Translations under genes and position numbers: made by a program
In this document: in pieces, positions 1,711 through 61,800 of the stretch
How positions within the stretch are numbered: position 1 is the stretch's first letter
Layout of the letters: every line of letters starts with the position of its first letter
From: Rhynchopus sp. YZ270_cl-10
Taxonomy: Eukaryota
NCBI GenBank assembly: GCA_964035575.1
Contig: OZ037834.1
Location: 1,240,001-1,304,000, forward strand
Direction: 5' to 3'
Length of the DNA: 64,000 bases
Notes under the pieces: model-generated
What the model saw: only the letters and a program-made list of their open reading frames with translations
Told to the model about the DNA's origin: nothing
The model's database searches: none

Positions 1711-1778
1711 CTGTAGTTATAGATGCAGGCACCCCTCCGACTGACCTACGCACGATGCCAGCCATCCGGATGAAAGCA
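1711..1778 (-). repeat. ~65-nt dispersed element (family B)
   Basis: Further copies at ~22523-22576, 44457-44526, 51656-51716 and 52931-52990; degenerate copy at 49810-49864; same orientation. Confidence 0.88.
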
Positions 1779-1791
1779 ACAAAAAAAAAAA

Positions 1792-1860
1792 GTGAAGTTG
1801 ATAGTGCAAAACGCCCTCTGGGGCGCAGGGCACTGACACTCCGTGGGTTATCGAACCCCG
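1792..1860 (-). mobile_element. 69-nt 5'-truncated copy of the LINE 3' end (family D)
   Basis: Matches 37000-37065 including the last pol codons; A-tracts on both sides. Other copies at ~29961-30033, 44088-44142 and 54905-54960; variants at 53654-53714 and 60620-60668. Confidence 0.88.
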
Positions 1861-11061: not shown

Positions 11062-12307
11062 TTGCAGTAGGTAGGAGTAATTTTATTTTTTTTTGATCAA
11101 ATAGAAGTAAAATTCTATTATTTCAGGCACGATGTCACAGTAGGTAGGGGTAGTATTGATTAACAGTTTTGTAAAACAAAAAATTTGGCTGGTTCTCTCT
11201 GTATTGCTTTTGGCTTTTGTTTTTTGTGCCTTGTAGGGAGTAGGGGTAGGGGTGATACCTTTGAATGTAAACAGGTAGTATTAGGAGGTTAATTTAGGGG
11301 GAAGAGGAGGAAGGGAGGGGGTTTTTGTACCAAATGTGTTTTAGATCCCTGAAGAAAAAAATGGGGGAATATAGAAGTGAAGTGTGAAGAGGTGGAGGAG
11401 GAGGAGGGAGGGAAGAAGAAAAAAAATATTTCGCTTTTTTTTTCCTGCTTTCTGCATTTTTTTTTAAAGGGGGAGATTGGGGTAGGCGGGTAGGTATATT
11501 TGCTTTTTTATTTTTTTTTTTGGAAGATTGCTCTGGGTGTTTGTTTGCTGCTGTTTTAATCTGGAAAAAAAAAAAATATGGGTGTATTGACCACCTGGGA
11601 CCAGGGACAATTTTTTTTCCCCTCCCTAAGCTTTTCTCTCTTCCCCCCAAAAAAATACGAAAAAAGGAAACATAATTTTAGGAATAGAATCACCTCCCTC
11701 CCTGACACTCGGAATACACAGGGGGCATTTATACCAGCATAACTGGAATTATCCAAACAAAATCAAAAAAAAAATGGGGAAAACAGAAACTGAACAGCGA
11801 GGGCAAAGGACTTCTCCCTCTTGTGTTCTCAACATTTTTTTTCTGTTTTCGATATTGCAGGAACCATCCATTTTTTCCTTCCTTTTTTTTTGTTAATGTC
11901 ACTGACAGTCCCCCTCCCCACTCTCTGTTGGTTGGCTGAGCGAAACAGGCCCTACTCGTTGAAAATACCCTACAATTTCAAAAAAAAAAAAAAAAAAACA
12001 CGATTATGTTGCAAAACAATCGCCTAAGCACCGAATCGGTGGTACTAGGGTTGGCCGAAGCCTCTTTTTGTACGACGGAAGGTAAAGACGCTTTCTCTCG
12101 GGAGGGGAGGAGAGGGGGGGGGAATAGGGAAATACTAAACTCTCACACTAAGCACACAAAAAAAAAATTATAAGACATTTTTACCTCCCGTGTTGCGTCG
12201 CTCTGTCTCCAGCTGGGTTTTGTTTTATGATGTGATATGAGAGGGGGTATAATCACAGAAAAAAAACAAAATGTCAGCTGTTTTGATGGGACAAAAAAAA
12301 ATGAAAA

Positions 12308-12348
12308 GTTTATAAGATGACCCTAAGCCTCTCGTGCTTAGTCACCTT
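12308..12348 (-). repeat. 41-nt hairpin element (family A), representative of roughly 30 copies
   Basis: Minus strand AAGGTGACTAAGCACGAGAGGCTTAGGGTCATCTTATAAAC then T-tract. Clear copies at 12453, 26188, 28308, 32124, 49447, 52694, 55544, 61544 and 62133. Confidence 0.9.
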
Positions 12349-29354: not shown

Positions 29355-30746
29355 AATTGTTGAGTAGTGTAGTTGCCTCGGTTGTGTTGCCACAGTTGCG
29401 CAAATCTCCACTTTCCAAAAGTTTTTTTTCTGCCGTTTTCATGGACACATCTGGACCCCCTCACCTGTTGCAAAAAAAAGATTTGTAAGGTAAAACCTAA
29501 GCTCCTGTTACGTTACCGTTGAAACAAAACAAAAAATCTTGTTTAATTTTAGACTACTATCGTGGGATAGCAGCCAATTTTTCTTCAAAAAAAAGAAGCA
29601 AAAAACAAAACAAAAACAACAATGCTAACATGCAGACACCTCTTTTTGAATGCAGGCACGTGAAGAATAAAGTAAAAACAAAACAAAACAAAAAATAAGG
29701 GGGAGGGAGGGTTGTTACAAAGGCACCTTTCGCGTGGCTTTGTGGTGTTGAAGAAAAGACAACCGTAGGCAGTACACGAGCTTCCAGAAGACACGTCTCA
29801 ACTCGGGCAAGGCTAAACCAGTAAGGGAGGGATTAACGTCTTGCGGGTAGGGATGTGGTCTGGAAAGCGTGTGCACTTTTGTTGTGTCGACAAAATCACC
29901 TGCTAGTGCAGGATCTGTACTCAATGTCGCCCGAAGGCTACTGTTTTTTTAAAAAAGAAAGTGAGGTTGACAGTGCAGCTGCGCTTCTGGGACGCAGGCA
30001 CTGACACTCCGCGGGTTATCGGATCACGGAGTGTTCCACTTTGGAAGAAAAACAAAATGGTAGAATGTGTGATGGAAGTCAAAAAAGAAATGGGCAAAAT
30101 AAAACAAAAACCCCAAAACCAAAACAAAATCGCAAAAAGTATTTCCACAAAAAAAAAAAAAACATCCCCCCTTCCCCCTCCCCCTTTGCCCCCGCTCCGC
30201 CATGAAGGCAGAGACAGCAACAAGGTGCCCTGCGCCTGGTCTGTGTCAGGTCAAAAGCACAACTGCAGCAAAACAAAACACAAAAAAAAAAACAACACGG
30301 ATCTCAAAAGTAAAGAAATACGCACATAACATCACACATACAATGGGCGATGCTTCGCTCTTAGGAACTACCCGCATTTGCTTTCAAATGCACACATCGG
30401 TAGTGGCCAGTCTACAAGCAACCCCCGACTCTTTCGGACATTTTGAGTGCATCTATTATTATATTTTTTTTTGACAAAAAAAAAAACATTTTGTCAAAAA
30501 CTAGATTATATAAAGTGAAGTTCATAATGAACAATTATTTGTATTAAAAATTCATGTGCTTTTGATTCAAGAGAACAGAAAAGCATCTTCACGTAAAACA
30601 ATGCGCTCCGTGGCTACCGGATCTCCACGGGAGAGCGTGCGAAAAAAAAAAAAGAAGTAATAAAACGAGATGTGGGTCACCATTTCCCACCTTCAATTTG
30701 TTCTTTTTTTTTCCTTTTTCTTCTTTTCCTTGAAAACTTTTTTTTT

Positions 30747-30929: not shown

Positions 30930-32236
30930 ATGCAAAGCATTTTTCGTTTTCTTGCATTTTTTGACAACCATCCCACCCAGAGAGATGGGTTATATGTTGC
31001 CATATCCAAAAGGCATGACATTGTACCTGCTCACTCCCCCCTTGAGAGAGAATGCAAGAGAAAGAACAAAAAAAAAAACTAAACAAACATTTTTGCCATT
31101 GATTTGTCACCAATCTACTGACATACGGATACCTCAAGGTGGATGCAGGCACCTAAATATGCCATCTTCTACCAATATGTCCCGAGTACAGTACACACGA
31201 CGGTGAAGTAAATGACTTGGCATGTGGTTTTACTTCTGGTTTCACTGTTGCAAAGCTAACAATGAAATTAGAAGTAAAACCACAAAATCAAGCCATTCAC
31301 TTCACCGGCATGTATGTAGGTGAAGAGGAGGGGTGGGGGACAGGAGAGGGGGGGAAAGGACCTGACAATACCTGGTTGCTCATGTGAACCAATGGAATTT
31401 AACTTTATTTTTGCGCGCCAAAACCGCAAACCAAAAAACCTGCAGGCACAGGGTGGTTGTGGATTAGTGGCGGTAGTCAGGATCCTTCCCCCAAAATGGC
31501 AAATAATTTTGTTGTGAACAAAAAAAAAAAAAAAAAAATGCGACGAGCAATTTCGTTAGCGCAAAAAAAATACGTAGGGGAAATCAGGGGGGTTACGGGC
31601 ACGACTCATCTGAAGTGAAGTAGATCGGTGGCCAAAAAAAGGGGGTTTTTTAAAAGAGTACTTCGATGGATTCAGCGGAGTCTTTCTGTGCAAGTGTGGG
31701 ATCACACCATGTGTCGGAAAAATGTGCTGAGTACCCCAAAGGTCGGTGTGAGGTTTTCTTTAATCCTTTAATGGCCCCACACTGGGATTGCTCTGGAAAT
31801 GCGCCAGAACGTATTTTTTGTGTGGACAGATTGTTCGGATTTTCGAGGGAGCAAGTATGACCCCCTTGTTGGAGAATTAGCAAATATTGATGAAAAGCTG
31901 AAGTGCTAAAATTTTGGCCATTTTGTTTTTTCCGAATTGACCCCACCACAGGCTGGGATTGTTCCGGAAATGTAACAATTTGGGCGGCGAAAACCCACAA
32001 AAGCCCCAAAAAAGGGTGCAGGCTCAGCGCACTTTTGTTGTTGTGTTTTTTATATAATTTTTTGTAGTTCGTTCTTACGAATTTTTGAAAAAGTGAAGCT
32101 GATAGAATGAACAAGAACAGATTCTAAGATGAACTACGCCTCTCGCGCTTAGCCACCTCAACAAATAATACACCCTCACACACAAAAGGTACCCCACGAG
32201 AGACAATTTATGGGTTGGAAAAAAAAAATCACCCCT

Positions 32237-34990: not shown

Positions 34991-37052
34991 TTTTTGCTTT
35001 TTTTAGAGAAAATGTTGCATAAAGAGAAGCGAGACTGCGAGAAGGGGTATAGGGGATTGGGGGAAAGCACGGAAAAAAAAATCAAAACTGTGTATGAAGA
35101 GAGAGAGAGATGCCGGTAGGGGGGGGAGAAATGTGTGTGGGTGTGTTTTTTTTTGCTAGGGTGGTGTTGTGGGGGGGTATTCTGGGAGGGGATGAATACA
35201 AAAAAAAGTGTGAAGAGGGCAATGAGAGTCTCAGAGTAAACCTTTCATTCCCCCTAACCATAGTAAAAGTAGAGTTGAAATACAACAGCCCTCTCATGAA
35301 CAGTGTACCTTTGGTATGACTGGCTGTACCGGGAGGTGGACACCCCCAACCATGCAGTCCTACATTCCATTTCGTGGTTTATATCTGAAAGAAGGGAGGG
35401 TGTGAAACACTGCGAAATGAGAAATAAGGGAGGGGCTTTTTTTTTTTTTTTTTTGAGATTTGGAGACAATGGAAGGTACTATGCTCCTTTTTTTTTTTTG
35501 AAAACTTTGACAACGTGTACCCCCACCAACGGGCAATCCACGTGACCCGCCCTCCCTTGTTCACGTTTCGTGGAAACCACTGACAATGGAAGGTATTATG
35601 CTCCTTTTTTTCTGTTTTGGGTTTTGGATTTTTTTTTTTTTTTTTTTGTTTTGTTTGTGTTTGGTACTAAAACCATCCCTTCCCTCCACTACTAAGGGGA
35701 TATAATAAAAAGGGGGGCTTTCCGTCCTCGCTCTTCGTCATGTTAGGCGTGTTGTTTGCATGCATTGGGCGTTTGCGTGCAAAGGAAAAGGATTTTTGTG
35801 ACCACAGAACAGCCCTCACAAATTAAAGAAAATGCTATCAGAACAAAACATAAAGCCCTCTCCCGTGCTCCTAGTCGCCTCGGAACATAATAAATATTGA
35901 TTTGAAATACAAAGCCCTCGAATATTGTACCTTGGTATGACCGGCTGTACCGGGGGGGTGGACACCCCCCAACTATGCAGTCCTACATTCCATTTCGTGG
36001 TTTACATCTGATACAATAAAATACATCTGTTTTTTTTTTTTTCAATTCAGGAGAACAGTAAGTACTTGTGAGGGGGAGAAAAAATAAGGTGTGCAGTTTC
36101 AGTCACATCCCCTGACGGTAAGGAATAGAAGTGTTTCGTATACTTTCAAAGTCAAACAAGAGAAAGTACAAAGAACGTTATATACCCCCTACAAGAAAAA
36201 TAGCAACTCTGATAAGTAAAAGCACGTTGATTGCTCAATTACCCTGTTGGAGGGGGTGGGTGATTTGGCGACCGTATATCAGTGTATATCGGAAGAAACT
36301 ATTTCTCCTTTTAAGCTACACTTTGTAGAAGGAAAAGGCTGAGAGACGGAGCGGGAAAAAAGGGGGGTGGGACAAAAACACACAAAACAAAACCTTTGAA
36401 AAATGCATGATCATCGCTGTGCACACATATCTAGATACAACAAAAAAAAAGAACGACACAAGCACAACGTAACCCGTACCAAACACCCCCCATTTTATTT
36501 TGTTTTGCTAGAAACGTAACAGCAAAGGCTTTTGCAGCTCCAATAATAGAGACCCAATTTCTTTTTTTCTCGCGATTCTTTTTTTTGTATTTTTATATGT
36601 CCCCCGGCACAGCTTCTATCAATTACGGAGAATTTTGTTTTGGAATTAACTCGTTCGTTTTAATCTCTCGCTCCATCTTCGTAACATAACATTCTCAGAA
36701 AAATCGGCAGGAATAGCAGAGTTGCCGTGCACGACAGTCTTTGCACTTTTTTTTTCTTTTTTTTCAAAAAAAAAAGGGGGGTATCAAATATGGGAGGCAA
36801 GCCATTTGTGGTCTGTGGTTTTGTGGGTCAAATTCACCCGTTAAACACATGGTTCTGCACTTTAAAAAAAAATATGTTAGGACGATGAATCTAAGACTAG
36901 TATGTTTTAGTCCACCGTACCAAAAAAAAACCAAAAAAAATTCTGATAGACTACTCTCACTCACGGACTGCTATCACCCCACCTTTCGACCAAAAAAAAG
37001 TGAAGTTGATAGTGCAAACGCCTCTGGGACGCAGGCACTGACACTCCGCGGG

Positions 37053-40000
37053 TTATCGAACCCCGGAGTGATGTGCATGGGTGTGGTTTACAGGGAAGCT
37101 GTAAGCAGGTATACAGTCATTACCCCACCCTGATCGGGAAGGGGGGACAGCATGATTTAAAGATTCAAGAAAAGCACGTGTTTTGGCACACAACACTGGG
37201 CGTCTGCTGAATCCGATGAGCGCCGGGGCGCCGACGGAACGGAGGGAGTGCACACGATCCCTCTTCACACCAGGGAATGGGGCGCGGCGGAGATTCGCTG
37301 TTAAAGCTCGCATGTTAGCCTTGACGATGAGCCTTTGCATGACCCGCCCACGTTCACGGATATTAGAGGTCTGTTTGGCGAGGAAGACCCTTGTGCGCAA
37401 TTCGAAGTCGACCGCGAGCTCGACACACGACACGTCGCGGGGTTCTTTGCTCCACTCGAGCGTAATCACCCACCACAGGAAAGCTTTCAAAGTGAACGCC
37501 TCCCTATAGCTGGAGGAAAAACTAGGCCGTAGCTTGGTCAGGTAAGTGCGGAAGGGGGTATCGCGTTTAGAGGCAGCAAATGTGAGATTCCAAGGATGTA
37601 CAGCCGGGGCCACATCCGTTGGATTTGAGAGGGTCGTGTCGATCGTGGTGACGGCATCGAGGAGAAGAGACTGTACCGCCTTCACCGCCACCTTGTTCAC
37701 ATTGGAGGGCACAATGCCGTGCAGCACAAATCAGGTGGGCAGCCCCTTGCCATAGAGGCTGATGGCCGACGCATGTAAGGCAGTGAACGCCGCTGTGTGG
37801 ACAATGCTGCAGTGCCACAGTAGGTGGCGTGTGTGGCATGTAACCTGGATGAGGCACAAGGGGCATTTATCGCTGAAGTCTGCCTCGGGTAAGCCACTGC
37901 GCTTGAGCCCTGCTGGATGGCAGAAGAGGACTCCGCCACACAGAACACGTCGCATCCGGAAAGCCTTGAGGGGGTCGTGGTACTGTAGGGTGTGCCACAG
38001 GGCATTGGTGGCGCGGGTGTCAATGCCGTCGCTTATGCCGTCGTACGTAGGGCGTTTACTCTGCAGATCATCCCAGACCGCCGTACGCGCCAGAGCTCGC
38101 ACTTCATGGGCCCTCTTGGCTTTGTCTGTCCCGATGATGGGGATAGTCTTCGCGGTTGCAGACGTAGACGTCACTGCCCTCATCTCAGGGTCCCAACTCA
38201 CGTCACATCTGCGGGAGGCGGCGAGGACAGACCCCACTGGACCAACTGCATGCATAGGTGTACCCCGGGTTGCCAGGGTCTCGTACCTCTCTCTGATGCT
38301 CATGCACCTCTGGCGTATGGCGTCATTGCGTTCCACACTGGCGGCGTAAGCTCTGAACGTCCTGCATATTGCACTCGAGAGGGGGTGTGCCACGTGCGCC
38401 TTCAGGCAGAGTGTGAGCAGTGCATCCACTGAACGAGTAAGGTAGGTGGGGCCCCAGCAGCACATCGCCACCGCCGTCGATAATTCATTCATCACTGACT
38501 GAGGGGGCATGTTGAAGGCGGACTCATATAACACTGAAGGGAGGATGGCAGAAGTGGCGATAGACACCTTCTGGGAGAAGGAGAGCTGTGTCGCACCCAA
38601 ACATGAGAGCGCCCTAATGGCTGACTGGTATACCGTAGCGTTGTAGCGCCCCTTGCTCCGTAGGGAGCTGTACATCATCACGCCAAGTGAGCGAAGCGAC
38701 TTAGTTGTCTGGAACACATGATTGTCCTCAGACTTCAGCGTGCATTTGTGGTTCTTCAGCGATGAGAAGGCAAAGGTCTTCGCCATGTTGAGGCGCATGC
38801 CTGTGAGGCGGCAGAAGTCCTCCACTCGCAACAGACACGCCCCCACCGAAGCTTCGCTATGGCGAGACAGAAGGTATGCGTCGTCAGCAAACGACCGTAC
38901 AAACGCCTCAGGTACCTCCGCCGTGATGCAGTGCGTCAGGACCGACATCAAGGCGTTGATGAGCACCACAGAGAGTGGGCACCCCTGCAGGATCCCATTC
39001 GTCACGGAGTACGCCTCTCCTACGCCGGAGGGCAGCTTGAACCGCCGTCTCAACGTGGCGTACATCGCTCGTATAGGTGTCATGATCCTGGGGTGAAGCC
39101 CCATCTTTTCAACAAGATCTAAGGTGAGGCCTTGCGGTACGCGATCGAAGCATTTCGCAAAGTCTAGTGCCAGTCCGTGTAGCGGTTCGCCACCGAGCAG
39201 AGCGTCCTCCATCTGTGTGAAGACGTCATACAGGACATCGTTCGTGCTGTGCTTTGGGCGGAAGCCATGTTGCGACGGGTGTGCCCATTGTTCCTGCCAT
39301 TGTTGAACTGCCTGCAGGCGTGCGCAGGCCCATAACCGGTATACCGCACTGGTCACAGTCACAGGACGTAGCTTCAAGGGGGACTGGTCTTCGCCTTTGG
39401 GAAGGAGCGTCACCAGGGCGGTCAACAAGGCTTGTGGCCACACACCGTTCGTTTCTATCGTGTTGAACACTCGAGCAAAACCTTCCAGTATGCATAGGGG
39501 CATCGCATGAAGTTCCAATGAGCGCCAGCCATCAGTTCCGCAGGCGTCCGTGCGCTTACCTTTCCTGTCGAGCGTTCTACGCAAGTCAGCACCACTTAGT
39601 GGGTCTAGGGACATCGGGGAATTTGCGACGAAGCTGCCGAAACGTTGCTCGAAAGAGGCGAGAGTTGGCTCGGGATGGTCGTGGTCGTATAGGTTGAACA
39701 CTGACTTCCACTCATCACGCAGTAGTTTGTCCATCTCCCTGTGATTGGCCGTAAGCACACCGTCCTCTCCCCGAAGGGCGGAAATAGGAACACCCTGTTT
39801 CCCCATGCACCACGCTGTGAGTTTCCGTCGCTCGCTGCTAAAATCCACCTTCAGCTTGGTGGTGTACTGCTTCTCGCGTTGTAGCCGGGTATTGCGTATC
39901 TCGAGGTTCATAAGCGCCTTGGACTTGTTCAACAGAGAGTTAAGGATCTGTAGCTGCTTTTCGAGCGCGGGTGGGACTGTCGTCTCCTCGGACCTCAGCA

Positions 40001-41495
40001 ACTTGAGCGTGACTGCGGTGCGGAACACTTTACCCCAGGCGTTACGCACAGGATTCTCCATCACCCCACCAGGACAAGATTCTGTCTTCGCAATGAGGTC
40101 CGTGAGCTTATACTCAAATTTGGCAAGTTGGTCCTGTCGGGGGGAAGACCCACCAACAGACGCCGGTCGCGTAGGTGCACACACCGGTTTCAGCACAGGA
40201 TGGGGGATCTTGGAGCGGCCGCAGAACCCTTTGGAGAGCGTGTCACCAGCTGCCTTTGCCGCGAGCAGGAGAAACTCTTCCCCAGCCAGCGCGATCGCTT
40301 CCCACGCATCGTCAATGTCACCGGACGCAAGTGTAGCGGCACAGTTGTGTTGTTGTAGAAGGTTCTTGCCGACTGTCTCAGCATTCGCCACCGTCCCAAG
40401 TTCCGGCATCTGTTTGGGGATGGTATACCGAAGTGTCGACTCTGTAAACACAGAGAGGCAGAGTCGCACGTTGACGGACTTGTGGCTGGGGATGCAGTTG
40501 ATACGATGTGTCCAACAGCTATGGACGGCATGTGCAGCGACGCTGTTCAGCAAGATGTAATCGATACGGGTCCCTGCTGAGTCTTTGCGGGTGAACGTGG
40601 CAGGGGGCTTGCCGTCATCCCCAGTGCTGCCCAGGAGCGCGACGTCGCACCAGTCCTTGGCGAGTGCTTTCCGCAATGTTGGTGATCTTTCCACATCAGT
40701 GTTGAGGTCGCCGCACACAATCAACGGAACGTTACCCAGGGTTTCTCGAAACTTCACAAGCACTGTGTGGAGGAGTTCTTCGCGTGCAGCAACTGTAGCT
40801 CTTGGCGTGTCACCTGACGGGGCGTACACATTCACCACATGCAGGAACAGACGGCCGGAACCAAGCGCTACGCGCGTGTGCACCACACGTTTCCTCAGCT
40901 CGGGCTTCAGAGAAGACGTCAGTTCGGTGTCCAGGAACATGATGCCCGGTCTCTTCAGCATGGTGGCCACTCCCCCACGTTCCCCAATGTGTGGACTGCG
41001 GAGGCCATGGACGAGTGTGCCATCCATGGGGGGGCCCCATTCTGGAGACCAGACTGTGGTGAAGAAGTCGTTCATCTCCAAGATCTTGGACTCGGTCAAC
41101 TTTGTCTCTTGTAGACACACTATATCGCACTTCAGGTCGCGTATGATATGTGCGTAGTTCTGTAGGGATGTGCAGTTGATGGTGGTTAGCGTGAGGGTGT
41201 TCTCAGCAGCGGAGCAGCACGTACGCGAGGAGGAGGATCTATCCGTTGAAGAGGAAGAAGAAGAAGCAGAGGTAGAAGAAGATGTGTCTGAGAGTGACGG
41301 GGGGAAAACGGGGCGAGGAGAAAACGATGCCAAGGATGATGATGATGATGATGATGATGAGGAGGAGGAGGAGGAGGTACGGTTTGGGAAGTGGCGGGGA
41401 CCAGGGCGCGTTTCGATGCACTCGCGAGGAAGCTGCTCGTAGTTGTAGGCGGCGAGTGATTCCGGAAAACGCTTCGTGCTGTTGGTGTGGGGGAG
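37053..41495 (-). CDS. LINE pol region: APE endonuclease + reverse transcriptase + C-terminal domain (one internal TGA at 37731-37733)
   Basis: APE motifs TINC, CLQETK, GDLN, RIDY. RT motifs LRPV, QHGFR, LDFAKCFDRV, GILQGCPLS, FADD. CPLC...HLLWHC. The same frame continues past the TGA as FVLHGIVP to the TAA at 37053. Confidence 0.9.
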
Positions 41496-43127
41496 TCAGT
41501 CGCGCTTAGGTGACGAGGCCGCCCCGGTGAATTGAGGGCGGGAGTAGTCGTGGGATTTACCGTCCTGCGCATTCGGGATGTGGATGGCTCCCTTGAACTG
41601 CCTCATCTTGCGTGTGGGCCGGTCCTCCGGGACCGTCTCGCGAATGAGCAGGGGTTCGTGATAGTCCCCTCGCGCTATCTTCGTGAACTGGGGTCGTTCC
41701 TGTGCGCACACGATGATCACATGCTGGCGTTTCTTTTTGTATGAGGAGACACACTTGCAGTCGAATCCCGAAGCCTGGAGGGTTTTGACGATGTCCTCCC
41801 TCAGCTCGTACTGGCGCGCTCCGAGGACGGTGTACTTCATCGCCCGAGGGTCCATCAACGGCGTCACATTGTTCACCCCAATGTCGTTGACCGCCTCCGC
41901 TGTCGCGTAGTTGTTGGTGAGGCGGATGCCGAGGCCCCCCCCGCTGCCGATCACCAGTCCCAAGGTGGTTTCCTCATGGGAGTTGCAGAACTCCCACGCG
42001 TGGTCCATTGTGAGGGCCCGGTCAAGCCACACCACTGCGTAGAGGTCCGGCTGATACGGTACGTGGGACACGGCTGTCATGAACAGCCCCTCATGGCCGG
42101 AGAGACGTAACAGTGGTGCCAGGCGTTCGTTCTTAACCCTCAGCTGGATCGACAGCTGGTAGTCGTTGGTCCTCACCTTCCAGACGTCCCTAGGCCCCGG
42201 GGAGAAGCCCGCTTGTTTGCAGCGGGTGGTGACGAGTGAGCCGAGCTCAGCAGTCGGATTCGCCACTGCTCGCGTCCACACATCCGCGTGCACTACGTGG
42301 GCCTTCGACAGGATGAGTGCTACGATCGTTGTAGACGTCTGGTTGTTCACACTGGTCTCGCGGCATACCTCTGGGGCCCATGTCCAGGTGGGGGTGCGGC
42401 ACACGAAGAACTGCCTGCGGGTGTAGCCGGTTTCGGCGTCGGCTTTTCCCTGTACAAGGGTCGTCACAGCGTCGGCGCAGAACTTCGTCTCGCAGAGGAC
42501 GGCGCACGCAATGCTCTCCTTGCGGTCGCAGCGCCTCTTCACGCGTTCCCACGCCTCTTGCGCGCTCTTCTTGTTGGTGGCGAGGAAGGTCCCCGCTGGC
42601 TGCACGTCCAGCTCTGCCGCATCAGACACGATGGCGGCGCCGAACTGTTTCGGCTGGACCATCCACAGAGGGGCGGGGGTGGCGAACGGCCCCTTGCGGC
42701 GTCTGACCACGTCGGTCCACGTCCCGTTCTGCAAGTGCACGGTGCCTTTGTGCTGCTTGCTGGTGTCGCTGTTGTTGCGGTAGTTGTTGTTGTTGTTGTT
42801 ACTGTTGTTGTTGTTGTTGTTGCGGTGGTTATTGTTGTCGTTGTTGTTACTGCCGTTGTTGTGTTTGGCACTGTTGTTGCTGTTGTTGTTGCTGTTGGTG
42901 TTGCGGTTGATGTTGTTCGCGCTGTGTTTCATTGCATTGGTGGTGGTGGTGGTGGTAGCGGCGGCGCCCTCCCTCGTCACAGGCACCTCCGTCTTCGTCG
43001 TCGTACCCCGGGCCCCAATCATGTCCAACATGATATCTAGGATTTGCAGAATCCTGTCCCGGTCTTCGTCCGTCCTTGCGCTCTTACTGAAGCGCCTCGC
43101 CTTCTCGAGCATAGCTTCATAAGACAT
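41496..43127 (-). CDS. LINE ORF1-like protein (543 aa, Asn-rich low-complexity segment)
   Basis: ATG at 43127 (MSYEAMLEK) downstream of a C-rich CAG; directly upstream of, and in frame with, the pol region. Confidence 0.75.
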   Translation of the reverse strand: MSYEAMLEKARRFSKSARTDEDRDRILQILDIMLDMIGARGTTTKTEVPVTREGAAATTTTTTNAMKHSANNINRNTNSNNNSNNSAKHNNGSNNNDNNNHRNNNNNNSNNNNNNYRNNSDTSKQHKGTVHLQNGTWTDVVRRRKGPFATPAPLWMVQPKQFGAAIVSDAAELDVQPAGTFLATNKKSAQEAWERVKRRCDRKESIACAVLCETKFCADAVTTLVQGKADAETGYTRRQFFVCRTPTWTWAPEVCRETSVNNQTSTTIVALILSKAHVVHADVWTRAVANPTAELGSLVTTRCKQAGFSPGPRDVWKVRTNDYQLSIQLRVKNERLAPLLRLSGHEGLFMTAVSHVPYQPDLYAVVWLDRALTMDHAWEFCNSHEETTLGLVIGSGGGLGIRLTNNYATAEAVNDIGVNNVTPLMDPRAMKYTVLGARQYELREDIVKTLQASGFDCKCVSSYKKKRQHVIIVCAQERPQFTKIARGDYHEPLLIRETVPEDRPTRKMRQFKGAIHIPNAQDGKSHDYSRPQFTGAASSPKRD

Positions 43128-43236
43128 ATGATGATTGATTTTTTTTTTTGTTTTGATTGATCTGTGAGGGGGGGGGAGGGGGGGGGAGACCCCACGGCCG
43201 ACACGCCCGAGCGGAACAGCAAGCGTATTTGACGAC

Positions 43237-43275
43237 CAATGAAGTACAGAAACTGTAGCTTTAGAAATCGTTGGT
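43237..43275 (-). other. Genomic copy of a diplonemid-type spliced-leader exon
   Basis: Minus strand reads ACCAACGATTTCTAAAGCTACAGTTTCTGTACTTCATTG, close to the Diplonema SL as I recall it (AACCAACGATTTAAAAGCTACAGTTTCTGTACTTTATTG). A partial duplicate CCAACGATT precedes it. Confidence 0.9.
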
Positions 43276-45569
43276 AATCGTTGGAAAAAAAAGAAAAGAA
43301 AAAAGGCTGACAAGATGAATCCAAGTCTCTCAGCTTTGCCACCTTTGTCACCTTAAGAAACACAGAAAAAAGTTTGTAATGTTTAGTCACTAAACAACAC
43401 ATCATCTTTCGGCTAATTGACCCGAAAAAAAAAAAAAAAAGCTCCACTTCACTATCGACAATACACAACACTGCAACATTCAGACGCAGATAACGGGTTC
43501 TGCTTCGGGATGCCAAAATACAGTCAGAGAAGAAGAATAAAAAGTTGAAAAAAGGAATGTGCCTTGATGTACACACATTTTTAATAGACGCAGAATTTCT
43601 TTTTGATACAACAGTTCAAGGAGAGCGAAGATAAAAAAGACTAATTTCATTACTTTCCGTTCAAAGAAGAGAAAGCAGAGAAAAAAAAAAAAAAACGGTA
43701 AAGATGGAAAACCCGACTCACCTAAAAAAACTGTAGCGAGCAAAAAAAAAAAAAAAAAAGAAAAAAAGAAAATTGTAAGATGCATGTGCCTCTCATGCAC
43801 ACACACATCTAATAATCGCAATAAGCCTAGAACAAAGTCTACCCCATTGTACTTCCCCCCGTTTTTGAGTTTTTTTTTTGGGGGGGGGACATTCTGAGGG
43901 GTTCCTTTCCAATTATTTAAAATAGTTGGGGCTAAAGGGTGGATTTGTTTGCCACTATCACGTACATTTTTTTTTACGTCCTCCATCATGCACTGATTTA
44001 AAAAAAACGATTTGAAAGCGAGACTGATGGAAAGATAACGACACATACTTTTGGAATATGGTGGAAGGACACACAAAAAAAAAAAAGGTGAAGTTGATAT
44101 GTGCAAAAACGCCCTCTAGGATGGACACTGACGCTCCGTGGGAAAATAGCAAACTGTCTCCACCCCCCTGAGGGCTGTACTTAGTGAGTTGGTTGCAGGT
44201 GGATGTAAAAAAAAGTGTCACTTGTCGTTCCCTCACCCCCCTTCTTGTAGTTGTTTGATGCGTTGACGCTTCCACACACACTAAAAATCACCTGTTGGGT
44301 GGTGGTGTTGCGGAGCACGGTTGGGTGAGTGAACGACGTGACACTTTCCGCTCACAAAGTAGTGTGCGTAAAAAAAAAAAAAAAAAAATGGACAAACAAA
44401 CAAACAAAACTTGCAAGATGAATATAGCCTCTCATGCACACACATCTTTCACAAAATGGTAGTTGTTGCTGCAGGCACACCTCCGACTGACCTACGTACG
44501 ATGCCCAGCCATCCGGATGAAAGCACAAAGAAAAAAAAGCAGGGTTTTGGGAAATGAAATTTATCAAAAAAACTGGGTCTGTGTTTTCTTTCATTATTTT
44601 TTTTTTTTAGGGTACTCTCACTTTTTCTTTTGTTTCTTGTCCCCGCCCGCTCGGATTTTTCAGGGAGGGAAAAAAAAAAAAGTGGGCAAAAAAAAAAAGT
44701 GTACAGGGTTTCCACCAAGGTGGACCGGGGTGGGACCATGCCCACCCCATTATTTTTTCCAGAAAAATCCGGATTTTCACAGGGTTCGGGGGGTATATGG
44801 TGACCCCCGAGAAAAATGGGGTTTGAAGGTTGTAGATGACCCCCCGTGGTCATGCGACCAGAGCATTTGGCACGTTGTAGCCGGGCAAGTAGTGGAGTTC
44901 ATCCTCGGGTGTCTACACTAATACAACCAAGTTTTCAAAAAAGAAAAAAGTAGTGTACCGTGCGCCTGCGGCGCTGTGTTGCTGACTACTGCAACATCCC
45001 CGCAAGGTAGAGAACTGCACGCTCCAATCTGAGCCCCACGGTGGAGAGCAATCAAAAGAAAATGGCACGAGTAAAAAAAGTTGGTAACGTGAGCCTGCGG
45101 CGCTGCCCCCCCTTTACCTTACACTGACGGGTTTTGACCAAAACCAAAAACTTGTCCATTTTGGCAAATTGGCCCCACCACACAACGGACGGATTCCGGA
45201 AATGCAAATGCCGGTGTTTTCGGGCACTTTCGTGTTTTCAGACGTCAGGATCAGGGAGAGAAAATCTGGATTTGGTCAAGGACAAGAAACAAAAGAAAAA
45301 GTGTGAGTACCCTTACCTACATTCTAGGACAGTTCATGTCGAAGAGGGGGGAGGGGATATTCATTTCTTTTTCTTTCGTCGAAAAACCAAAGCAAAGAGA
45401 AGCGGTACATCTCTTGCTTGGCGTTCTAAAGGGGTGAGTCAGATGCCAAATTCCTTTCTTTTCCCTTTTGTTTCATTTTTTTAGTTCGCCACATTCCTCG
45501 CAAAAAAAAAAATTTAAAAAAAAAACAAAGAACAGCCATTTTTTTTAAATTTTTGCAAGAACAAAAAAA

Positions 45570-45690: not shown

Positions 45691-47319
45691 AAATACGAGG
45701 AACCGAAAAGGCGAAAAAAATAATATAAAAACAGGGGGAGGCAATCTTTACTCTTGTTCTGTCTGGGGGAGGTGGGGGGTAAACTTTTCTGAGGGAGGGG
45801 AAAGAGGGAGGCGGAGATACAAAAAAGGGTTGACTTTTGAAAAACACAAATCCCTCGCGTGACTGTGTACCTCGGTGCGTCAACAGTACACGGGGGAGTG
45901 GACCCGAAACCATGCTCTCACGATACTACATACTCCCGTGGATACAATAGTTGGGTAAGATGAGCCTGAACCTTTCGTGCATAGCCACTTTGAAAAATAC
46001 AGTCAATACAACAAACATCGGTAGAATAAAAAACCCTTCTTGTTGCGTGACTGCATATCTCATAACAAACACCCTTTGTATTGAAGTGTTGGCAAACACG
46101 AAACCAGAAAAAAATAAATAAAATGAAATGAAAATTTGAAAAGATGGGATGTGTCACCACGTCACACATATGGCAATATCCGAATTTAAGGAAAAATACC
46201 TTTAAAAAAAAATCGGGTTTTCAAACACACATTCACACATCTTTTCTTGAGGAATTTATGCCCTCTTATATCCCCTTACTTTTTCTTTTGCACAAAAAAA
46301 ACAAAAAACAAAACAAAAAACTTGTAAAAATGATGTACCTTCTTGTACACACACACATCGAGGAAAGTCGGAAAACTTGAAAATAGCACCCCGCTCTCTC
46401 TCTCTCTCTCTCTCTTTCTTCACCACACATTTCGAAAGCTTGAGTTCACGGGGTGCATGGAGCAAGCTATGTACAACACACGCGAAACACGCGCACACCC
46501 ACCGGACAAGCAGAATTCAGCCAGACCGGTTCTTTTGAATTACGAAAAATTCACGCACGAGGGGAGGGGATATTGAATGGGCTTTTTATGAAGTTTTTTT
46601 TTTGTTATGTTTTGCTTTGTGCTCTTGAGGGGAGGACATAGTGATAACTGTTGGTAATCACCACTTGGGAGAAACTGTTTTGACAAACTTTTTTTTTACC
46701 ATTCCTTATAGGGAACGGAGCATTGTACGGTCCTGGAAACTCCAAGAAAAATGGAGTCGGCGGGAAACCAAAGAGGAAGTTACCTTTTCCTAAACGTACA
46801 CACAACTGGCAAAAAAAAAGGGGGGAGGTGTCGTCACTCACCATCATTGAAATAACATTGCTTTACCAATGGTACACTCCAATACTGCTCAAGGGTGTGT
46901 CGGGTTTCCCCCCTCCCTCTCAATACACAAAGACAACGACACACTGCGACTTTGCGTTGGGCTGCAATGAGAGCAAATATACAAAACGTACGCAGGAAGA
47001 AGACACCACGCCCTCTCTTCTTATGTTGTTCCAACAAATGTGTTGAGGGGTATGAGTTTCTTTTTCTTCTTTTGGAAACTTGCTTGTATTAGTGTAGCCA
47101 CCCTAGAGTGTGTGCTCCACTATACTAGATATTCTTTTCTTCATGAATCGCAAAAAAAAAAAATACAAAGCGCGCAAAGAGCCAAAAATAATGCAACGAG
47201 GCTTTTCCCTTTTTTTCGAAAAAGAAACAAACAAAAAAAATTCGTCTGTGATAGACACAGAGAGAGTGGCTATATTTTTTTTTGTAACTTTTAAGATATT
47301 TTTTTGCCAGTTTTTTTTT

Positions 47320-47399
47320 GTTGTGTCGACAATCACCTGCTAGTGCAGGATCTGTACTCAATGTCGCCCGAAGGCTATTGTACTTAAAAGATATAGACG
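47320..47399 (-). repeat. Poly(A)-ended structured repeat (family E)
   Basis: Ends ...GATTGTCGACACAAC(A)n on the minus strand. Relatives at ~12008, 21321, 23393, 28603, 29881, 54616 and 55815. Confidence 0.75.
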
Positions 47400-51334: not shown

Positions 51335-54300
51335 TTTCTTTTGTGAAAGTTTTGCGGGAAGAGAGGGGGAAGGGGGAAGGAGGGAAGGGGAAGGGGGGTT
51401 TGAGTAAACCCGCAAAGATCTGAAGGGTGCGAAAAAAGGGTGGTGGTGGTGAGGGATTTGATGCATCAAAAAGTGAATTTGCCGTGAATAGAGAAGCTCT
51501 GGGGGTTGTGGAGGTACAGAACAAAAAAAGTTGGCTTGAAATACAACACAGCCCTCGGTGAGAAGGAGTACGGTGCCACGAGGCAATCCAGGGTGGTTTT
51601 GGAGTCTCATCAAGAGGGCGAATGTATTTTTTTTTTGTTTCGGTAGTAAAACAAAGTGAAGTCATGCAGGCACACCTCCGACTAACCCACAGTACGATGC
51701 CATCTGGATGAAAGCACAAAAACTACCCTGCGGCCAACAGAAGAAGAATAAAGATTAAGATATCATTTTCAATCGAAAAGATGGAGTTTTATCAACAGAA
51801 GAAGAAGAAGAAGAAGAAGAAGAAATAACAAAATGGGGGTGTCCTTGCATTTGAGTTTAAGATTCTTGGATTTTTTTTTTAGGAGGTTTTTTTTTTCTTC
51901 TTTTTTTTTTTTTTTTTGCCTTGGGGAAGAGCACAAAGGGGGGGGAAAAGAAAAGACTATAACAACAGTTGGAAAGGTTGAAGAAAAGAAAAGAAAAAAC
52001 AAAAAAACCAAAACGGAAAACTTTTTTTTGAAATGAATGGATGCGGTCTTGATACTAGACTTGACACATCTGAACGACGATGATATAAAAGCGAAGAAAT
52101 AAAACTGTAGCGCACCACCAAAAAGGGTTTTTTGAAAGATGAATTCTGCCTCATCTACACCATCCTTCAAAAAATTTGACAAATCTTGATTTTTAAGACT
52201 CACGAAAATAGCATCCAAAACTTCAAAAAAAAAAAAGGGGGGGAAACGTGGACACGATGGCCAGTTTGATGTGGGAGAGCGTCAAAAAAAAAAAAGTGGA
52301 CGAAAATACTGGTTGAGAATTACTCTCCAAAAAAACGTCAAAATTTTTTATGCCCTCCCGCTCAAACTGGCCACCGTGGAGGGGGGGGCGGAGAAGGGGG
52401 AATGAAGAAAGGTTTTATAGGAATCTATCTAAGCCTCTCATGCTTAGCCAACCTGATCACGAATCGTTGTCGAACGAACTAGCAATGGTAATCAATGGAA
52501 AATGCTCATCCTATACGAGGGGAAAAGACGGTGGGGAAATCGAAGGGGTGTCGGAACACCCGTGTAGTGGGGGAATTGACAAAAAATCGTCAAGAGAAAA
52601 GGAAAAAGAAAAAAGAAAAAAAAAAAAAAAAAACTAAATTTCATATACTTTCTTCAAAGAAAGAGAAAGCACACAAAGAAGAAAAGAGAAAAAGTTTATA
52701 AGATGAACCTAAGCCTCGTGCTCAGTCATCCTGGGAAGAAAAAAAAAATTAGATTCATGTACTTTCCATTAGAGAAATAGAAAAGCAGTTGAGAAAGAAA
52801 ATACCATACTTAAAAGATGAATCTAAGCCTATCACGCTATAGTCACCCAAAAGAAGAAAATAAAAAAAAAAATCTGAAAGTGCGAGCATCTCTGCAGACA
52901 CAGGCACTGCTGAAAAAAAAAATAAGGGAATGGTTATTAATGCAGACACCCCAACTGACCCACGTACGATGTCGGCCATGGATGAAAGCATAAGTACCCT
53001 CAAAAAAAAAGGGGGGGTAGAACGACAAAATGCTCGTGGACCCACCTTCAAAAGAGAGAGAGAAAAGTTTAACAATCCCAAGCAAAAGGCGATCTGTAGG
53101 GTAGAGAACTAATACCGTATTCGTAAAAGAATTATCGATCGTAACAAAGGCTGAACTACCAGAAAAATCTTGAAAAAGGTCGCACATTTATACGATTGAT
53201 ATAATTTTTGTACGAATACTGTAAAAATAACAAAATAACAAAATAACAAAATGCAATTTAAATACCAACTCATTCTTGACCTTTTGGGTAACCAGGCGAC
53301 GCCGGCCAAAAGTAACAACCCAGAATGAGAGCAGTTTACCCCCCTTTTTTTTTCAAAAAATAAACAAATAAGGAAATTCATCCCTTTCCTCTCATCACGC
53401 TTATGCTTTTCCCGGTCTGTACTGAACGGGAAATATGCTTGTATACCAAGCGCATGCTGAGACATACGGTGGAAAGGGTTTAGTCTCCTTAACACGAAGC
53501 GCACACAGAAACAAGAACCATACGTAGAGAAAGAAATAAAAAGAAAAAGAGAGAGAGAAAGAGAGAGAGAGAGTGTGTGTGTGTTCTCTATAAAAGCGAA
53601 GGGTACAAATGTTTTGTCACGTTTTGCAAAAAATGAAAAATAAAAAATAGAGAGAAGTTGAAAGTGCAAGCGCCTCACCGTATATCGGCGGACGCAGGGC
53701 ACTGGTTCTCTGGGTAAAAAAACAAAACAAAACAAAACGAGACGTGCTTTCAAAAAAAAAAAAAAAAAAAAAAAACATTTTTTTTTTGCTAATACCAATG
53801 CACACCATGGATTCATCAGGACAATACGAGCGTTATGACGTCGTAATTACGAGGGGGGTGCCCGCGTCATGACGACGTATTGCGATAATTTCCCCACGTT
53901 TTTTCCTTCGTCGCTCGTCACGTAATGTCCTTACGAGTCCATGGTGCAAACACCCCGAGGGGTGGTGCACTAATACTATTTAAAAAAAATGCGCTTTTAT
54001 GAGATGTTGTGATTGATTTTTTTTTTTTTTTTTTTTTCTCTCCTCCTCTTTGCTTTTTTTTTTTTTGAGATCGCGTTCTATACCATATCAGAAAAGGGTA
54101 ATATTACACAGGGAAAAAGAAGAAGAAGAAGAAGAAGAGGAAAAAAAGGGTTGTAAGATGAATGTGCCTCTCGTGCATACACACATCTACAAAAAAAAAA
54201 AACAACCGCAACAGCAGTTGAGAGTATTGCCTTGGATGTGTCAAGAATCAGATTTAAAAAAAAAAGAAGAAAAAGAAAACGACTTCAGGATATGACAATT

Positions 54301-55039
54301 TAACGAAAAAGAAAAAAAAAACACTTTTTTTTTTTCGGTTATCGCACCGCAAAAGGCTTTGTGCATTTTTTTCACTGCAGAATAATGTGTGAGGTATGCG
54401 TCAGTGAAGAAAAAACCCAATCCTCTTAGACGGGCACGCACCATCCGTCGTTTTCCATTTCTATTTCGGCAATGTTAGATAAACCCCCCCCAAAAAAAAA
54501 ATTTGTGTTGTCAACCGCTCAAAGCATAGGGAGGGGAGGGAGCAAAGCGAAAGCCTTGTTCCTAGTCAGAGTGCTCTGCGGAGTGAAGGTGTTTTGTTTT
54601 TTTTTTTTTGTTTTTGTTGTGTCGACAATCGCCGAGTAAACCCACCAGGTGGGAGAATTCGGGTCTGTACTATTTTTTTTTTTACATTTTATTTTGCAGT
54701 GTCCCCCTCCCCCCCCATCCAAGAGACGTTGATTTTTTTTTTTTTTGTGCAAAACCCTTCATCGGATCAACAAAACAAAGTGAAGTTGATAACGTACAGA
54801 GACACCTCTGGAACCTCATCCCACCTTTATAACAAGCTGCAAAAAACCTGGAAAAGGCTCCGTTCAAAAAAAAAATTCGCAATAGAAAAGAAGAAAAAGA
54901 AGAAGTGAAGTAGATACTGCAAGACGCCTGTAGGGGGACGCAAGCACACCAACATTCTGTAGAGGTTCTCGAAACCCCCCAGAGTGCTGCGAGAGCTGTA
55001 CTATCCCCCCCACCAGAGCGCTGTATTACAGATTTGCTT

Positions 55040-58826: not shown

Positions 58827-61800
58827 TTTGGAATATTTAAAAAACACTCTGTCCCAGTACTATTGTTTTTTTCTTTAGATTTTGTTCTCAACTGCAAAAA
58901 ACATTTCACTTCAAGAGTAGTTGATCTTCAAAAAAAAAAAAAAAAAAAAAATGCTGCGATAGATTCACAGAACAGCTCCTGAGCCATAGAAAAGCAGAAG
59001 AAGACCCCCATGAGATTCAGTCAAAGCAAAGATGCATTTTTTTTCTTTTTCTTTTTTTTTGATAAATTGTTTGAGCAGTGCAATTGCCTCAGGTTGCCAC
59101 AGTTGTTGCAACGAACAAAAATGAACAAAAATATATCTGGGTAGAGGGCTAAGAGGAGGGGGGCTTTATTTATTTTTTTTAAATCAAGTAGAAATTTAAA
59201 TCTGTTATCAATCAGGCACTATGTCATCAAAAACGCAAAAAGAAGGGTAAAAAAAAAAGAAAAATAGTTTCGGCCCCTGCCTCGAGACTATAAAATACCA
59301 CGGGGGCCTTCTCAATAGGCCGTAGGTAAAAGCAAAAAAAGGAAAAGTAAAAATGATGACGTAAGTTGGTGTCTCAAAGTGTCTCTTAACTGGAAGATCA
59401 TCCAGTGGCGAACGCACCATGCCTGTTATGTTTCTTTCATTTTTGTATAGCGGGTACTATTTGAGGTACTGGTTTGCAGCAGGAGGGGGGATACCTGACT
59501 ACTTTGTCGGTCGAATTCGAGAGAGACATAGTAGTTTACGGTAACTTCTTTGTAGTCTGTACGCCGAAGTGTTAACAAGAGAAGCCAAGGAGGAAAAATA
59601 TGAAGAAAAAACAAAAAAAGCAAAAAAAAAAAAAAAAAAAACAACAACAAAAAAAAAAAAACGAAGTACAAATACAAAACAAAGCAGGTTCAAGAAAGGG
59701 GTTTTTGGGTTGGGTGCTGTGCTCGCCTCTCTCTCTCTCTCTCTCACACTTCTCCCATAAAATACGGAGAAAAATTGTCGCCGGAAAACATTTGAGTTTT
59801 GTTGTTGGTTTTGTTTTCTTACAGGGAGAGAAAAAAGAGCGAAAGAAAAAGGGAGTCACTATCACAAGAAAGAAAAAAAAGGCAGCTTTTTTTTGTCTGC
59901 AAAAAGAATTTATTTAGAAACAAGAAAGGTTGTAAAATGAATATGCCTCACGTGCATACACATCCCCCATTCCCATAAAAAAAAGCATCGTCTTTTGCAC
60001 CAAACGTTACTGTAGGCCATGAGACAGTAGTATCATGTTTTGTGTGCCACGCGTTAGGTGTGTTGATGGTTTCTTTTTCCTTTTCTGATAATTTGTTGGA
60101 TTAGTGCACCAGATAGACAGTCTTCAAGGCACTTCCAACTAAATATCATATTAAGGAAAAGTTGTGGGATGAGCCCAAGCGTGACTGTGCTTGGTTTACC
60201 AGGAAAGAACGTATATGTTTCATTACCGGGTTTCTATTACCCCGGTTGGGTAATGAAAAAAAAGCTAAAACCCCGGTAATTCCCGGTACCCGGTAATGGG
60301 TGCCCGTCCATGATAAATAAATAGTTTTTTTTTTTTACAGAATTGCCAAATCCGCTTGCCCAATAAATATCGCCCACACCACAATCGGAGGGGGGGTGAA
60401 CCTAAAATACACGACAGACTAGTCAGGTTGGACTACCAGTTGAACTACTAGTCGTAACGACTAGTGGTGAACTAGTAGTGTTACTGGTGAAAACACTAGT
60501 TATTTGGCCTAGTAGAAACTGCTAGTCGTCCCCTTGATTAGCCAGCCGTGTCTGATCTGTGAACCACAAACCACAGGGGTTTTCGCAATCAAAAAAAAAA
60601 AATCAGAAAGTAAAGAGAGAAGCTAATGCAAACGCCTCACCGTTCATCGGCGGACGCAGGGCACTGTCAAAAAAAAAAAAAAAAAAAAAAAAGAAAGGGA
60701 AACAAATCATGTATTTAATGAGGCTTGGGTTGGCGGGGGTAAATGACGGTTAATTTTTGTTCGATTTTTAGACTACTAAAATACGGGATAGCAGCCACTA
60801 ATCAGAATTTTTTTTCTTCTTCGGTTCAGGGTAGTCATGGGGTATAGACCAATCGACTACCCTATTATTCCGGTTCGCATTTTGCTCTCTTGTTTATTTT
60901 TGTTGTGTATCATATCAGCATTCAAAAAAAAATGAGCATATTTTTTTTTGAGTGAAACACACAAATAACGAGGTCTGGGTTTGGGTGAAGTTAAAAAGCG
61001 ATCGTGTGTTTTCACAAACGGATGGGAACCTGAAGGGAAAGGGAAAAAAGAAAAGAAAAAAAGAATCTGAACAGAGGACTTAAGGTGGTCCGTCCCCCCC
61101 ACTAAGGGGTACACGCACACAAATTTCAAAAAAATTAATAGAAATGTTGATAGATCAGTGAAGGTGTTTTTTGTCACATAAATCCCAAATCTGCTGTGCT
61201 TAGTCACACCTCCGAGAAAGACACGCCTGGTGTGGCTGAAGGGGGGTGATTCGCACTTCTTGTGCACTTTTTTCACACCCCCATTCAGTCATCCAACGGA
61301 AGGGCAATTTTTTCGGCATACAAAAAGAAAGGTATATAAGACCCTAAGCCTCTGGTAGCTTAGCTTAGCCACCTTGCTGCAAAAATTTAAAAAAAAGGAA
61401 AAACGGTGTGAGGAATATCCTGGGGTTTCTGACATCAATGTAAAACGTTAAAAAAACACACAAAATTTGACGGCACGTGGAGAGATCACATACGTTAATA
61501 TGATACACACAGGGGTGAGCTATCAATCTATTTCGTTAAGAACGTTTATAGGATGAACCTAAGCCTCTCGCTGCTTAGTCAACCAGAAAGAAGAAATAAA
61601 GCCTTTTTTTGACGAAAAAATAGGCAGTTTCTTTTGGTGAGATGAACCTAAGCATATATTAGGTCACCTTCAGTTAAGATGAACAGACGAAGAGCTTCGA
61701 GGATTACCATACATTGTGGCAGCGTCCACGAAAAGGCCCCCTTAAAGCATCCGTGATTATTGGTATTTCAATAAGCATGGATGTTAGCTTTAGGGCGTCT

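Follow-up and report, generated by a model that had tools for sequence, protein, structure and literature searches.

Among described retrotransposons, the ingi/L1Tc elements are close counterparts of the long interspersed nuclear element (LINE) considered here. It lies in a 64,000-nucleotide stretch of the Rhynchopus sp. YZ270_cl-10 genome (assembly GCA_964035575.1, contig OZ037834.1, positions 1,240,001 to 1,304,000), which is referred to in full as the window. Both are euglenozoan LINEs that combine an apurinic/apyrimidinic endonuclease (APE) with a reverse transcriptase (RT) and lie in polycistronic gene clusters, mostly in sense orientation (PMC12278014, PMC5814959, PMC2323293). The ingi/L1Tc group (with RIME, NARTc and SIDER) shares with the Rhynchopus family a 2A-like motif ahead of the endonuclease, degenerate in the window copy, as well as T-rich upstream DNA and many short non-autonomous relatives. 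According to these sources, ingi/L1Tc elements have their own Pr77 promoter and ribozyme, an unspliced RNA without a spliced leader (SL), one open reading frame (ORF), an RNase H and poly(A). Unlike them, the Rhynchopus family has an SL as its head, two ORFs, an ORF1 predicted to be of the RNA recognition motif (RRM) type, no RNase H match and a T tract. Its 5' end is the SL exon in place of the 79-bp Pr77 signature, a distinction drawn from the published description of Pr77, and its T tract and conserved ORF1 stop stand in place of poly(A) and a single ORF.

CRE, SLACS, CZAR and NeSL are likewise elements without long terminal repeats (non-LTR elements) joined to SL sequence (PMC12278014, PMC5814959, PMC4640811). 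They encode a restriction-like endonuclease (RLE) and insert in SL genes, and CRE elements end in poly(A). In the Rhynchopus family, by contrast, the element takes the SL along to scattered T tracts, the endonuclease is of the APE type, and the LINE flanks differ from the SL-gene flanks found in contigs of three sequencing runs (X1, X2 and X7). Dinoflagellate retrogenes with SL relics resemble it in that a trans-spliced RNA was reverse-transcribed and its SL thereby became part of the DNA (PMC3229502, PMC12014239). Those cases are host genes with nested truncated relics, whereas here the SL is whole and single and heads an autonomous LINE. R2 RNA is released by a ribozyme. R2 itself is promoter-less, RLE-type, specific to ribosomal DNA (rDNA) and co-transcribed with it; it resembles the Rhynchopus LINE in relying on host transcription and in a 3' structure read by the RT, both as inferred for the latter (PMC2881922).

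The SL-headed, T-tailed LINE is real and family-wide. No SL-headed or T-tailed LINE is described in the literature searched, outside which lie Repbase and subscription papers. The term "spliced leader" has no match in seven supplements of the Diplonema papillatum genome paper (PMC10161547); the repeat and SL sections of its Additional file 1, outside that search, may bear on novelty. The findings suit a novel version of an APE-type LINE, and the "new retro-system" of the preliminary description is too strong a term.

The element and its spliced-leader head

The LINE occupies window positions 37000-43284 on the minus strand and is bounded by T8 runs on both sides. In the order of its own strand, its features are:

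43305..43354, minus strand: degenerate family-B hairpin, with the LINE inserted in its T tail
43285..43292, minus strand: 5' flanking T8, the end of a longer pyrimidine tract that forms the tail of this hairpin
43276..43284, minus strand: 9-nt repeat of the SL start, directly 5' of the SL in the window copy
43237..43275, minus strand: 39-nt SL exon without the SL intron
43128..43236, minus strand: 5' untranslated region (UTR), 109 nt, with an internal acceptor-like site
41496..43127, minus strand: ORF1, 543 aa, two predicted RRM-like domains, ending in TGA
37053..41495, minus strand: ORF2, 1480 codons in the frame of ORF1, with APE, RT and a C-terminal Cys/His motif
41397..41420, minus strand: degenerate 2A-like motif CIETRPGP, codons 26-33 past the ORF1 stop
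about 41165-40533, minus strand: APE endonuclease in ORF2 (Pfam)
about 39380-38679, minus strand: RT in ORF2 (Pfam)
37731..37733, minus strand: private nonsense codon (TGA) of the window copy, Cys in other copies
37000..37070, minus strand: 3' end, with the TAA that closes ORF2 in a small hairpin and a 53-nt 3' UTR with a terminal stem-loop
36992..36999, minus strand: 3' flanking T8, poly(A) absent

The two T8 runs are a possible target-site duplication, a call that a homopolymer makes undecidable.

The 39-nt head occurs once within the window. In Logan contigs of X1, X2 and X7, the same 39 nt stand between a fixed upstream flank and an intron that begins GTATGG; after the SL, the LINE reads GTCGTC at this point. 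This comparison identifies the head as the SL of the host, present as its exon alone. An exon-only head is what trans-splicing would give, because the SL is joined without its intron, and, as judged from the DNA, it shows at least one event of trans-splicing and reverse transcription. The diplonemid D. papillatum also has a 39-nt SL exon, and essentially all of its mRNAs, which stem from polycistronic clusters, receive the SL according to its genome paper (PMC10161547). Many long contigs terminate in the leader in a further data set, X3, which by this feature resembles a transcriptome; its run type is not on record. Within the window, the minus strand carries the host ORFs with Pfam matches and almost every long ORF.

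Further copies were read via protein read-through and Logan contigs. The ORF1 cluster holds six records on six contigs, with P0072 matching the window copy. Two others extend N-terminally through the UTR: P0069 reads ...LFFVS-PTISKATVSVLHW and P0074 reads ...VAFFFFF-HQRFLKLQFLYFIG, where PTISKATVSVLHW and HQRFLKLQFLYFIG are the SL read in two frames and preceded by T-rich DNA. All three full-length copies with a readable 5' end are therefore SL-headed, which supports the head as a family trait; the other three ORF1 records do not extend to the 5' end. Short-read contigs of X1 and X2, which come from two studies and either of which may be the source of the window, contain the SL|UTR junction as a unitig with 0 differences (depth 2028 and 622, respectively). 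The ORF1 start has depths of 1598 and 1395 in X1 and 299 in X2, and unique flanks have depths of about 290 in X1 and 105-156 in X2. These depths, a rough guide, suggest roughly 4-7 SL-headed copies and no large SL-less class among the matches listed. Neither the protein nor the junction pattern gave a match when metagenomes were scanned. The preliminary description had proposed an SL 5' end, T8 on both flanks, a 3' hairpin and the absence of poly(A) for the window copy. Each of these features stands, and the SL head extends to copies on other contigs, a point on which the proposal could have failed.

The SL-headed copies are nearly identical, with 100% ORF1 identity in five of the six records and one substitution in the sixth. 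The 9-nt repeat is found in the window copy and is absent from the two other copies read (P0069 and P0074). It fits an RT at the end of its template and is likely the product of slippage or a template jump at the RNA 5' end. The repeat ends at SL nt 10, or at nt 11 if the count starts from the A that lies upstream in the SL gene. The insertion point of CZAR and SLACS is between nt 11 and nt 12 of the SL exon (PMC5814959), a match that may be coincidence.

The 5' UTR contains a stretch with 24 pyrimidines in 25 positions, followed by an AG that ends at 43162, 34 nt ahead of the ORF1 ATG, and that may be used as a splice acceptor. Use of this AG would yield a shortened element, and none is seen. 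Joints near the internal AG in X3, with sides of 20-23 nt at many positions, were taken as chance. Some contigs carry the joint 37070->43238 (X1 and X2) or 37070->43135 (X1), linking the 3' 70 nt to the SL or the 5' UTR; SL-headed, internally deleted derivatives are a possible explanation. An X1 contig of depth 796 has the joint 43275->43235, a tandem SL pair with a short A run between.

Coding capacity, 3' end and relatives

The TGA at 41498-41496 closes ORF1 in all six records. Host ORFs end in TGA, TAG and TAA, which makes TGA an ordinary host stop and rules out its recoding as sense. Most of the 23 ORF1 homologues matched stand alone as proteins of about 480-760 aa and, together with the shared stop, define the family as a two-ORF element. 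The preliminary description of a single reading frame thus holds in that all coding lies in one frame, but the family-wide TGA splits this frame in two. A second TGA (37733-37731) is private to the window copy: TGC takes its place in all of X2, X6 and X7 and makes up about 99% of the depth in X1; intact ORF2 records exist (P0023 and P0028). ORF1 has no Pfam match and no Foldseek match at E<=0.001. Its predicted RRM-like folds span residues of about 265-356 and 424-505, with Z scores of 7.7 and 7.5 over 71-77 residues, below the clear range.

ORF2 has the order of APE-type non-LTR elements, with APE at the N-terminus (PF03372, E 1e-14) and RT after it (PF00078, E 5e-22), and its best PDB match is human L1 ORF2p (E 1e-20). 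RNase H has no match in the window ORF2 or the intact P0001, and P0009-P0011 match it in the same scan. The first in-frame ATG of ORF2 is codon 141, inside the endonuclease and past its motifs. The 30 codons 3' of the ORF1 stop are nevertheless conserved in P0002 and end in the 2A-like motif. ORF2 is therefore likely made by UGA read-through or AUG-independent re-initiation. Relatives have the motif as NIETNPGP and DIHPHPGP, and P0002 is closer than the window copy to the consensus DxExNPGP (PMC5814959). Dependence of ORF2 translation on ORF1 is described for SART1 and L1 (PMC2881922). Past the 2A-like motif, a Ser-rich linker (41239-41340) forms a long pyrimidine tract with acceptor-like AGs at 41288 and 41239, and no ATG lies between these and the endonuclease.

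The 83-nt 3' end has a predicted fold of -31 kcal/mol (z -4.4), equalled by 0 of 200 shuffles; the last 58 nt alone reach z -2.15, with 9 of 200 shuffles as good. ORF2 ends in Val-Arg-stop in P0001 and in P0002, P0003 and P0067, distant relatives with 31-51% identity to P0001. In the window copy these codons (37053-37061) sit in a hairpin loop that resembles a tRNA T-loop.

From the LINE 3' end, 220 contigs in X1 and 170 in X2 run on into flanks rich in T on the strand of the element, and no poly(A) class is found among the matches listed in these two sets. Between the 3' end and ORF1, summed depth drops more than a hundredfold, the pattern that 5' truncation gives. The 37 members of the ORF2 cluster, spread over many contigs, have the 3' end in common and are truncated to differing extents at the 5' end. 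Truncated copies have Phe/Leu-rich junction peptides in four of four cases in this family, two of three in the sister family of P0003 and neither of two in the P0009 cluster, counts that rest on the 15 of 37, 15 of 44 and 15 of 17 members listed, respectively.

Named relatives of ORF1 and ORF2 stem from Diplonema japonicum and D. papillatum, which makes a diplonemid the most likely host. A D. japonicum transcript (P0004), an unclassified diplonemid LINE ORF, has 36% ORF2 identity, and D. papillatum holds ORF1 homologues as well as the unclassified LINE ORFs DIPPA_15848 and DIPPA_24879. In a tree of 19 RTs without references for named clades, the family groups with P0002 and P0003 (97/94), and the three fall within a larger group of 12 that has weak support (94/90). 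Only distant, uninformative matches came from a search by alignment for named RT relatives, and the ESM Atlas gave no clade for the family. The family may be linked to dinoflagellate LINEs and to Ambal. A match to P0077 was set aside as repeat-driven. "LINE-1" gene models have been reported in D. papillatum, with rigorous element identification called for later (PMC10161547). The P0009 cluster (17 members), a sister LINE family apparently from the same assembly as the window, has an OTU protease before APE-RT, an RNase H and junctions that are not T-rich.

Short T-flanked elements

A profile search of the window gives 41 matches in five T-flanked families (7 in A, one of them the end of the LINE itself, 16 in B, 7 in C, 6 in G and 5 in D), all on the gene strand, and none in six control sequences. 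Two A-tailed families, E and F, were also distinguished. Their positions are:

1792..1860, minus strand: family A short copy, T tract on both sides
29961..30033, minus strand: family A short copy, likely of a sister subfamily
44088..44142, minus strand: family A short copy
53653..53713, minus strand: family A short copy, longer-loop variant
54905..54977, minus strand: family A short copy, degenerate
60624..60668, minus strand: family A short copy, longer-loop variant
12307..12348, minus strand: family B example of 16 matches, 42-nt hairpin unit with nearly fixed 5' end; other starts at 12452, 26189, 26384, 28307, 32119, 45956, 49447, 52429, 52693, 52814, 55543, 57584, 61335, 61544 and 62134
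54151..54184, minus strand: family C example of 7 matches, hairpin of about 40 nt related to B; others at 582, 1470, 25117, 43773, 44411 and 59929
35886..36011, minus strand: family G example of 6 matches, about 130 nt; others at 26436, 35259, 45829, 49402 and 63003
1716..1778, minus strand: family D example of 5 matches, about 60 nt, T-flanked with fixed 5' end; others at 22523, 44462, 51664 and 52933
662-726, 23362-23398, 25632-25662, 29354-29412 and 59061-59111: family E, A-tailed, varied 5' ends
22902-22952, 44890-44936, 47074-47126 and 63951-63998: family F, A-tailed

Families E and F appear as conventional poly(A) retroposons beside the T-tailed ones.

Without the LINE's own end, 40 short elements remain. 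Six (family A) come from the LINE 3' end, 29 share a short core only and five (D) not even that. Sharing of the LINE 3' tail, as in pairs of LINEs and short interspersed nuclear elements (SINEs), is full in A, partial in G, limited to the core in B and C, and not evident in D, which shows no such core and shares the setting only. B, C and G have in common with the LINE just an AGAGG(G)C core of 6-7 nt and, judged by eye, the spacing from core to T tract. The 3' end of G resembles that of the LINE, and its length reaches about 130 nt, whereas B and C consist of a hairpin alone, about 40 nt long, and their 5' ends are fixed at the hairpin foot. Family A short copies measure 45-85 nt with varied 5' ends and look like ordinary 5'-truncated LINE ends. 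The dozens of 40-70-nt derivatives that the preliminary description had assigned to the LINE are thus 40 short, T-flanked, gene-strand elements, but they form five families, and only six copies derive from the LINE. Its hairpin-only passengers give way, in family A, to truncated ends of variable length. Sharp family A 5' ends at 37070 in Logan contigs were considered as a minimal master and dismissed, the loose letters matching coding sequence of the sister subfamily.

T runs of at least 4 lie within 15 nt of the 3' end in 24 of 34 short elements and of the 5' end in 22 of 33, against an intergenic background of 20%; enrichment of the T fraction at the flanks has p 2e-13 (3') and 6e-8 (5'). 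T-tract supply cannot account for the strand bias, since it predicts a gene-strand share of 60% against the 41/41 observed (p about 1e-9). No RNA polymerase III head was detected: the short families contain no tRNA, and none of families A-G has an Rfam match. Short elements lie in one another's tails about as often as chance predicts (5 observed, 5.3 expected, p 0.63). An origin of B and C as miniature inverted-repeat transposable elements (MITEs) is ruled out by their asymmetric tail and single orientation.

Proposed mobilisation, its alternatives and other window features

The reading that we favour, with a probability of roughly 0.6, is a young two-ORF APE-RT LINE whose RNA is cut from the polycistron by SL trans-splicing and copied by T/A-tract priming. 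Host read-through would make the LINE RNA, and trans-splicing would add a capped SL. ORF2p, produced by UGA read-through or AUG-independent re-initiation and possibly a 2A-like skip, would bind the 3' hairpin, nick the A-rich strand of a T/A tract and prime on the U run behind the hairpin, so that poly(A) would not be copied. Rare cDNAs reaching the cap would fix the SL in DNA, and most would stop early, leaving the 45-85-nt ends of family A. The RT of the LINE or of a sister family would copy the B, C and G hairpins from intergenic RNA. The sequenced copies would be siblings from one source copy with a normal acceptor, the simplest arrangement because no nested SL relic is seen. A wider version is tentative and, in our estimate, somewhat unlikely. 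In it, diplonemid LINEs without promoter, ribozyme or poly(A) would build their own trans-splice signal by landing in sense behind a T tract, retake the SL in each generation, prime on U tracts and have bare 40-nt hairpins copied from polycistronic RNA.

Several observations weigh against this account. No transcript of the LINE was seen, so that trans-splicing of its RNA and the lack of a promoter are putative. An upstream T tract and the first AG inside a daughter's SL would lead to nested SL relics of the kind seen in dinoflagellate retrogenes (PMC3229502); none occurs in the three copies or in the junction unitigs, where a single SL is joined directly to the UTR. No source copy without SL is present among the matches listed, and the count of SL heads excludes a more numerous sister subfamily (94% ORF2 identity) whose 5' ends are unread. 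The read-through peptide of P0024 permits at most about three T past the 3' end. Compensatory changes support none of eight hairpin pairs in family A and one of six in B and C, and four of 11 short copies folded are no better than shuffles or marginal (z above -2). The A-tailed families E and F are on the gene strand in eight of nine cases, and L1Tc is about 10:1 sense despite its own promoter (PMC5814959). Orientation therefore does not single out use of host transcription: the co-orientation to which the preliminary description appealed is complete among T-flanked elements (41/41), but it is nearly so in A-tailed families.

The absence of nested relics would be explained if the SL had been captured once and were now a fixed part of the element. 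Copies would then arise from longer read-through RNA, whose cDNA would extend past the genomic SL into the T tract of the donor and anneal to the T tract of the target, or the terminal TG of the SL would act as acceptor and swap the SL exactly; use of TG was proposed for dinoflagellate SL relics (PMC12014239). P0069 and P0074 may share a C immediately 5' of the SL, as a fixed SL would have it, and annealing of this kind would also account for B, C, D and G having 5' ends fixed at T tracts upstream. In the window copy, however, the junction differs, and the SL-start repeat there fits an RT running off a real RNA end; SL-bearing contigs of X1 and X2, not assignable to the LINE family, also end 1-2 nt inside the SL. 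A fixed SL is rated as unlikely. We consider it improbable that the element has its own internal promoter or a 5' processing signal like Pr77 of L1Tc, with the SL incidental to one recent burst. Near-identity of the SL-headed copies would suit a single burst, and most characterised LINE 5' UTRs hold promoters (PMC2881922). This UTR, by contrast, has just 109 nt, consists largely of C and A runs with an acceptor-like AG, and has no ribozyme or other notable Rfam match; an HDV-like ribozyme, sought by eye, lacks a convincing P2.

That the SL is a target or an artefact, with the LINE inserted into an SL gene or following a stray copy of the SL, or with a chimeric contig, is highly improbable and refuted for the three copies read. 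CRE, SLACS, CZAR and NeSL do target SL genes (PMC12278014, PMC5814959, PMC4640811), and SL-headed pieces of other kinds are present in this genome. Yet SL-gene DNA is absent from both flanks, one and the same SL|UTR junction is found at separate loci and again in short-read unitigs from two studies, and the LINE encodes an APE endonuclease instead of an RLE. The position is closer for B, C, D and G, which have a little less than an even chance of being independent of the LINE, either as ends or SINE partners of other LINE families or as old host UTR signals like the Leishmania SIDERs. They have no BLAST match to the LINE, their shared core is only 6-7 nt, and at least two more LINE families (the P0003 and P0009 clusters) apparently reside in the same genome. 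Against independence stand the common strand and T flanks, the comparable distance between core and tail in A, B, C and G, and the G end, which is much like that of the LINE.

Trypanosome LINEs avoid trans-splicing through their own promoter and ribozyme, and the Rhynchopus family seems to use the SL instead. SL use would add a further answer, beside promoter and ribozyme, to how a 5' end is defined inside a host transcript. The family also allows target-primed reverse transcription in the absence of poly(A) to be tested and supplies a candidate enzyme for SL-tagged retrocopies. It is, moreover, a source of modules of hairpin and T tract by which trans-splicing signals could be reshaped in a marine group that is abundant and has a transformable model species. 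If the wider version held, the head-less SINEs would be among the smallest mobile retroelements, at about one per kb of intergenic DNA.

Several minor features of the window lie outside these families. Single long inverted repeats (fold-backs), MITE-like and intergenic, are located at 13777-13869, 31195-31313, 49526-49659, 61717-61816, 63099-63152 and 779-835. Low-copy dispersed repeats of 60-190 nt form the pairs 26253-26380 / 49020-49147, 30748-30931 / 46698-46883, 29881-29943 / 47320-47380 and 17803-17886 / 62844-63006. Tandem arrays of 14-, 9- and 10-nt units occupy 15967-16407 and 26778-27900, with the 14-nt unit in both. The host ORF at 2327-6589 encodes 1420 aa with PqiA (paraquat-inducible) domains, a mostly bacterial family.

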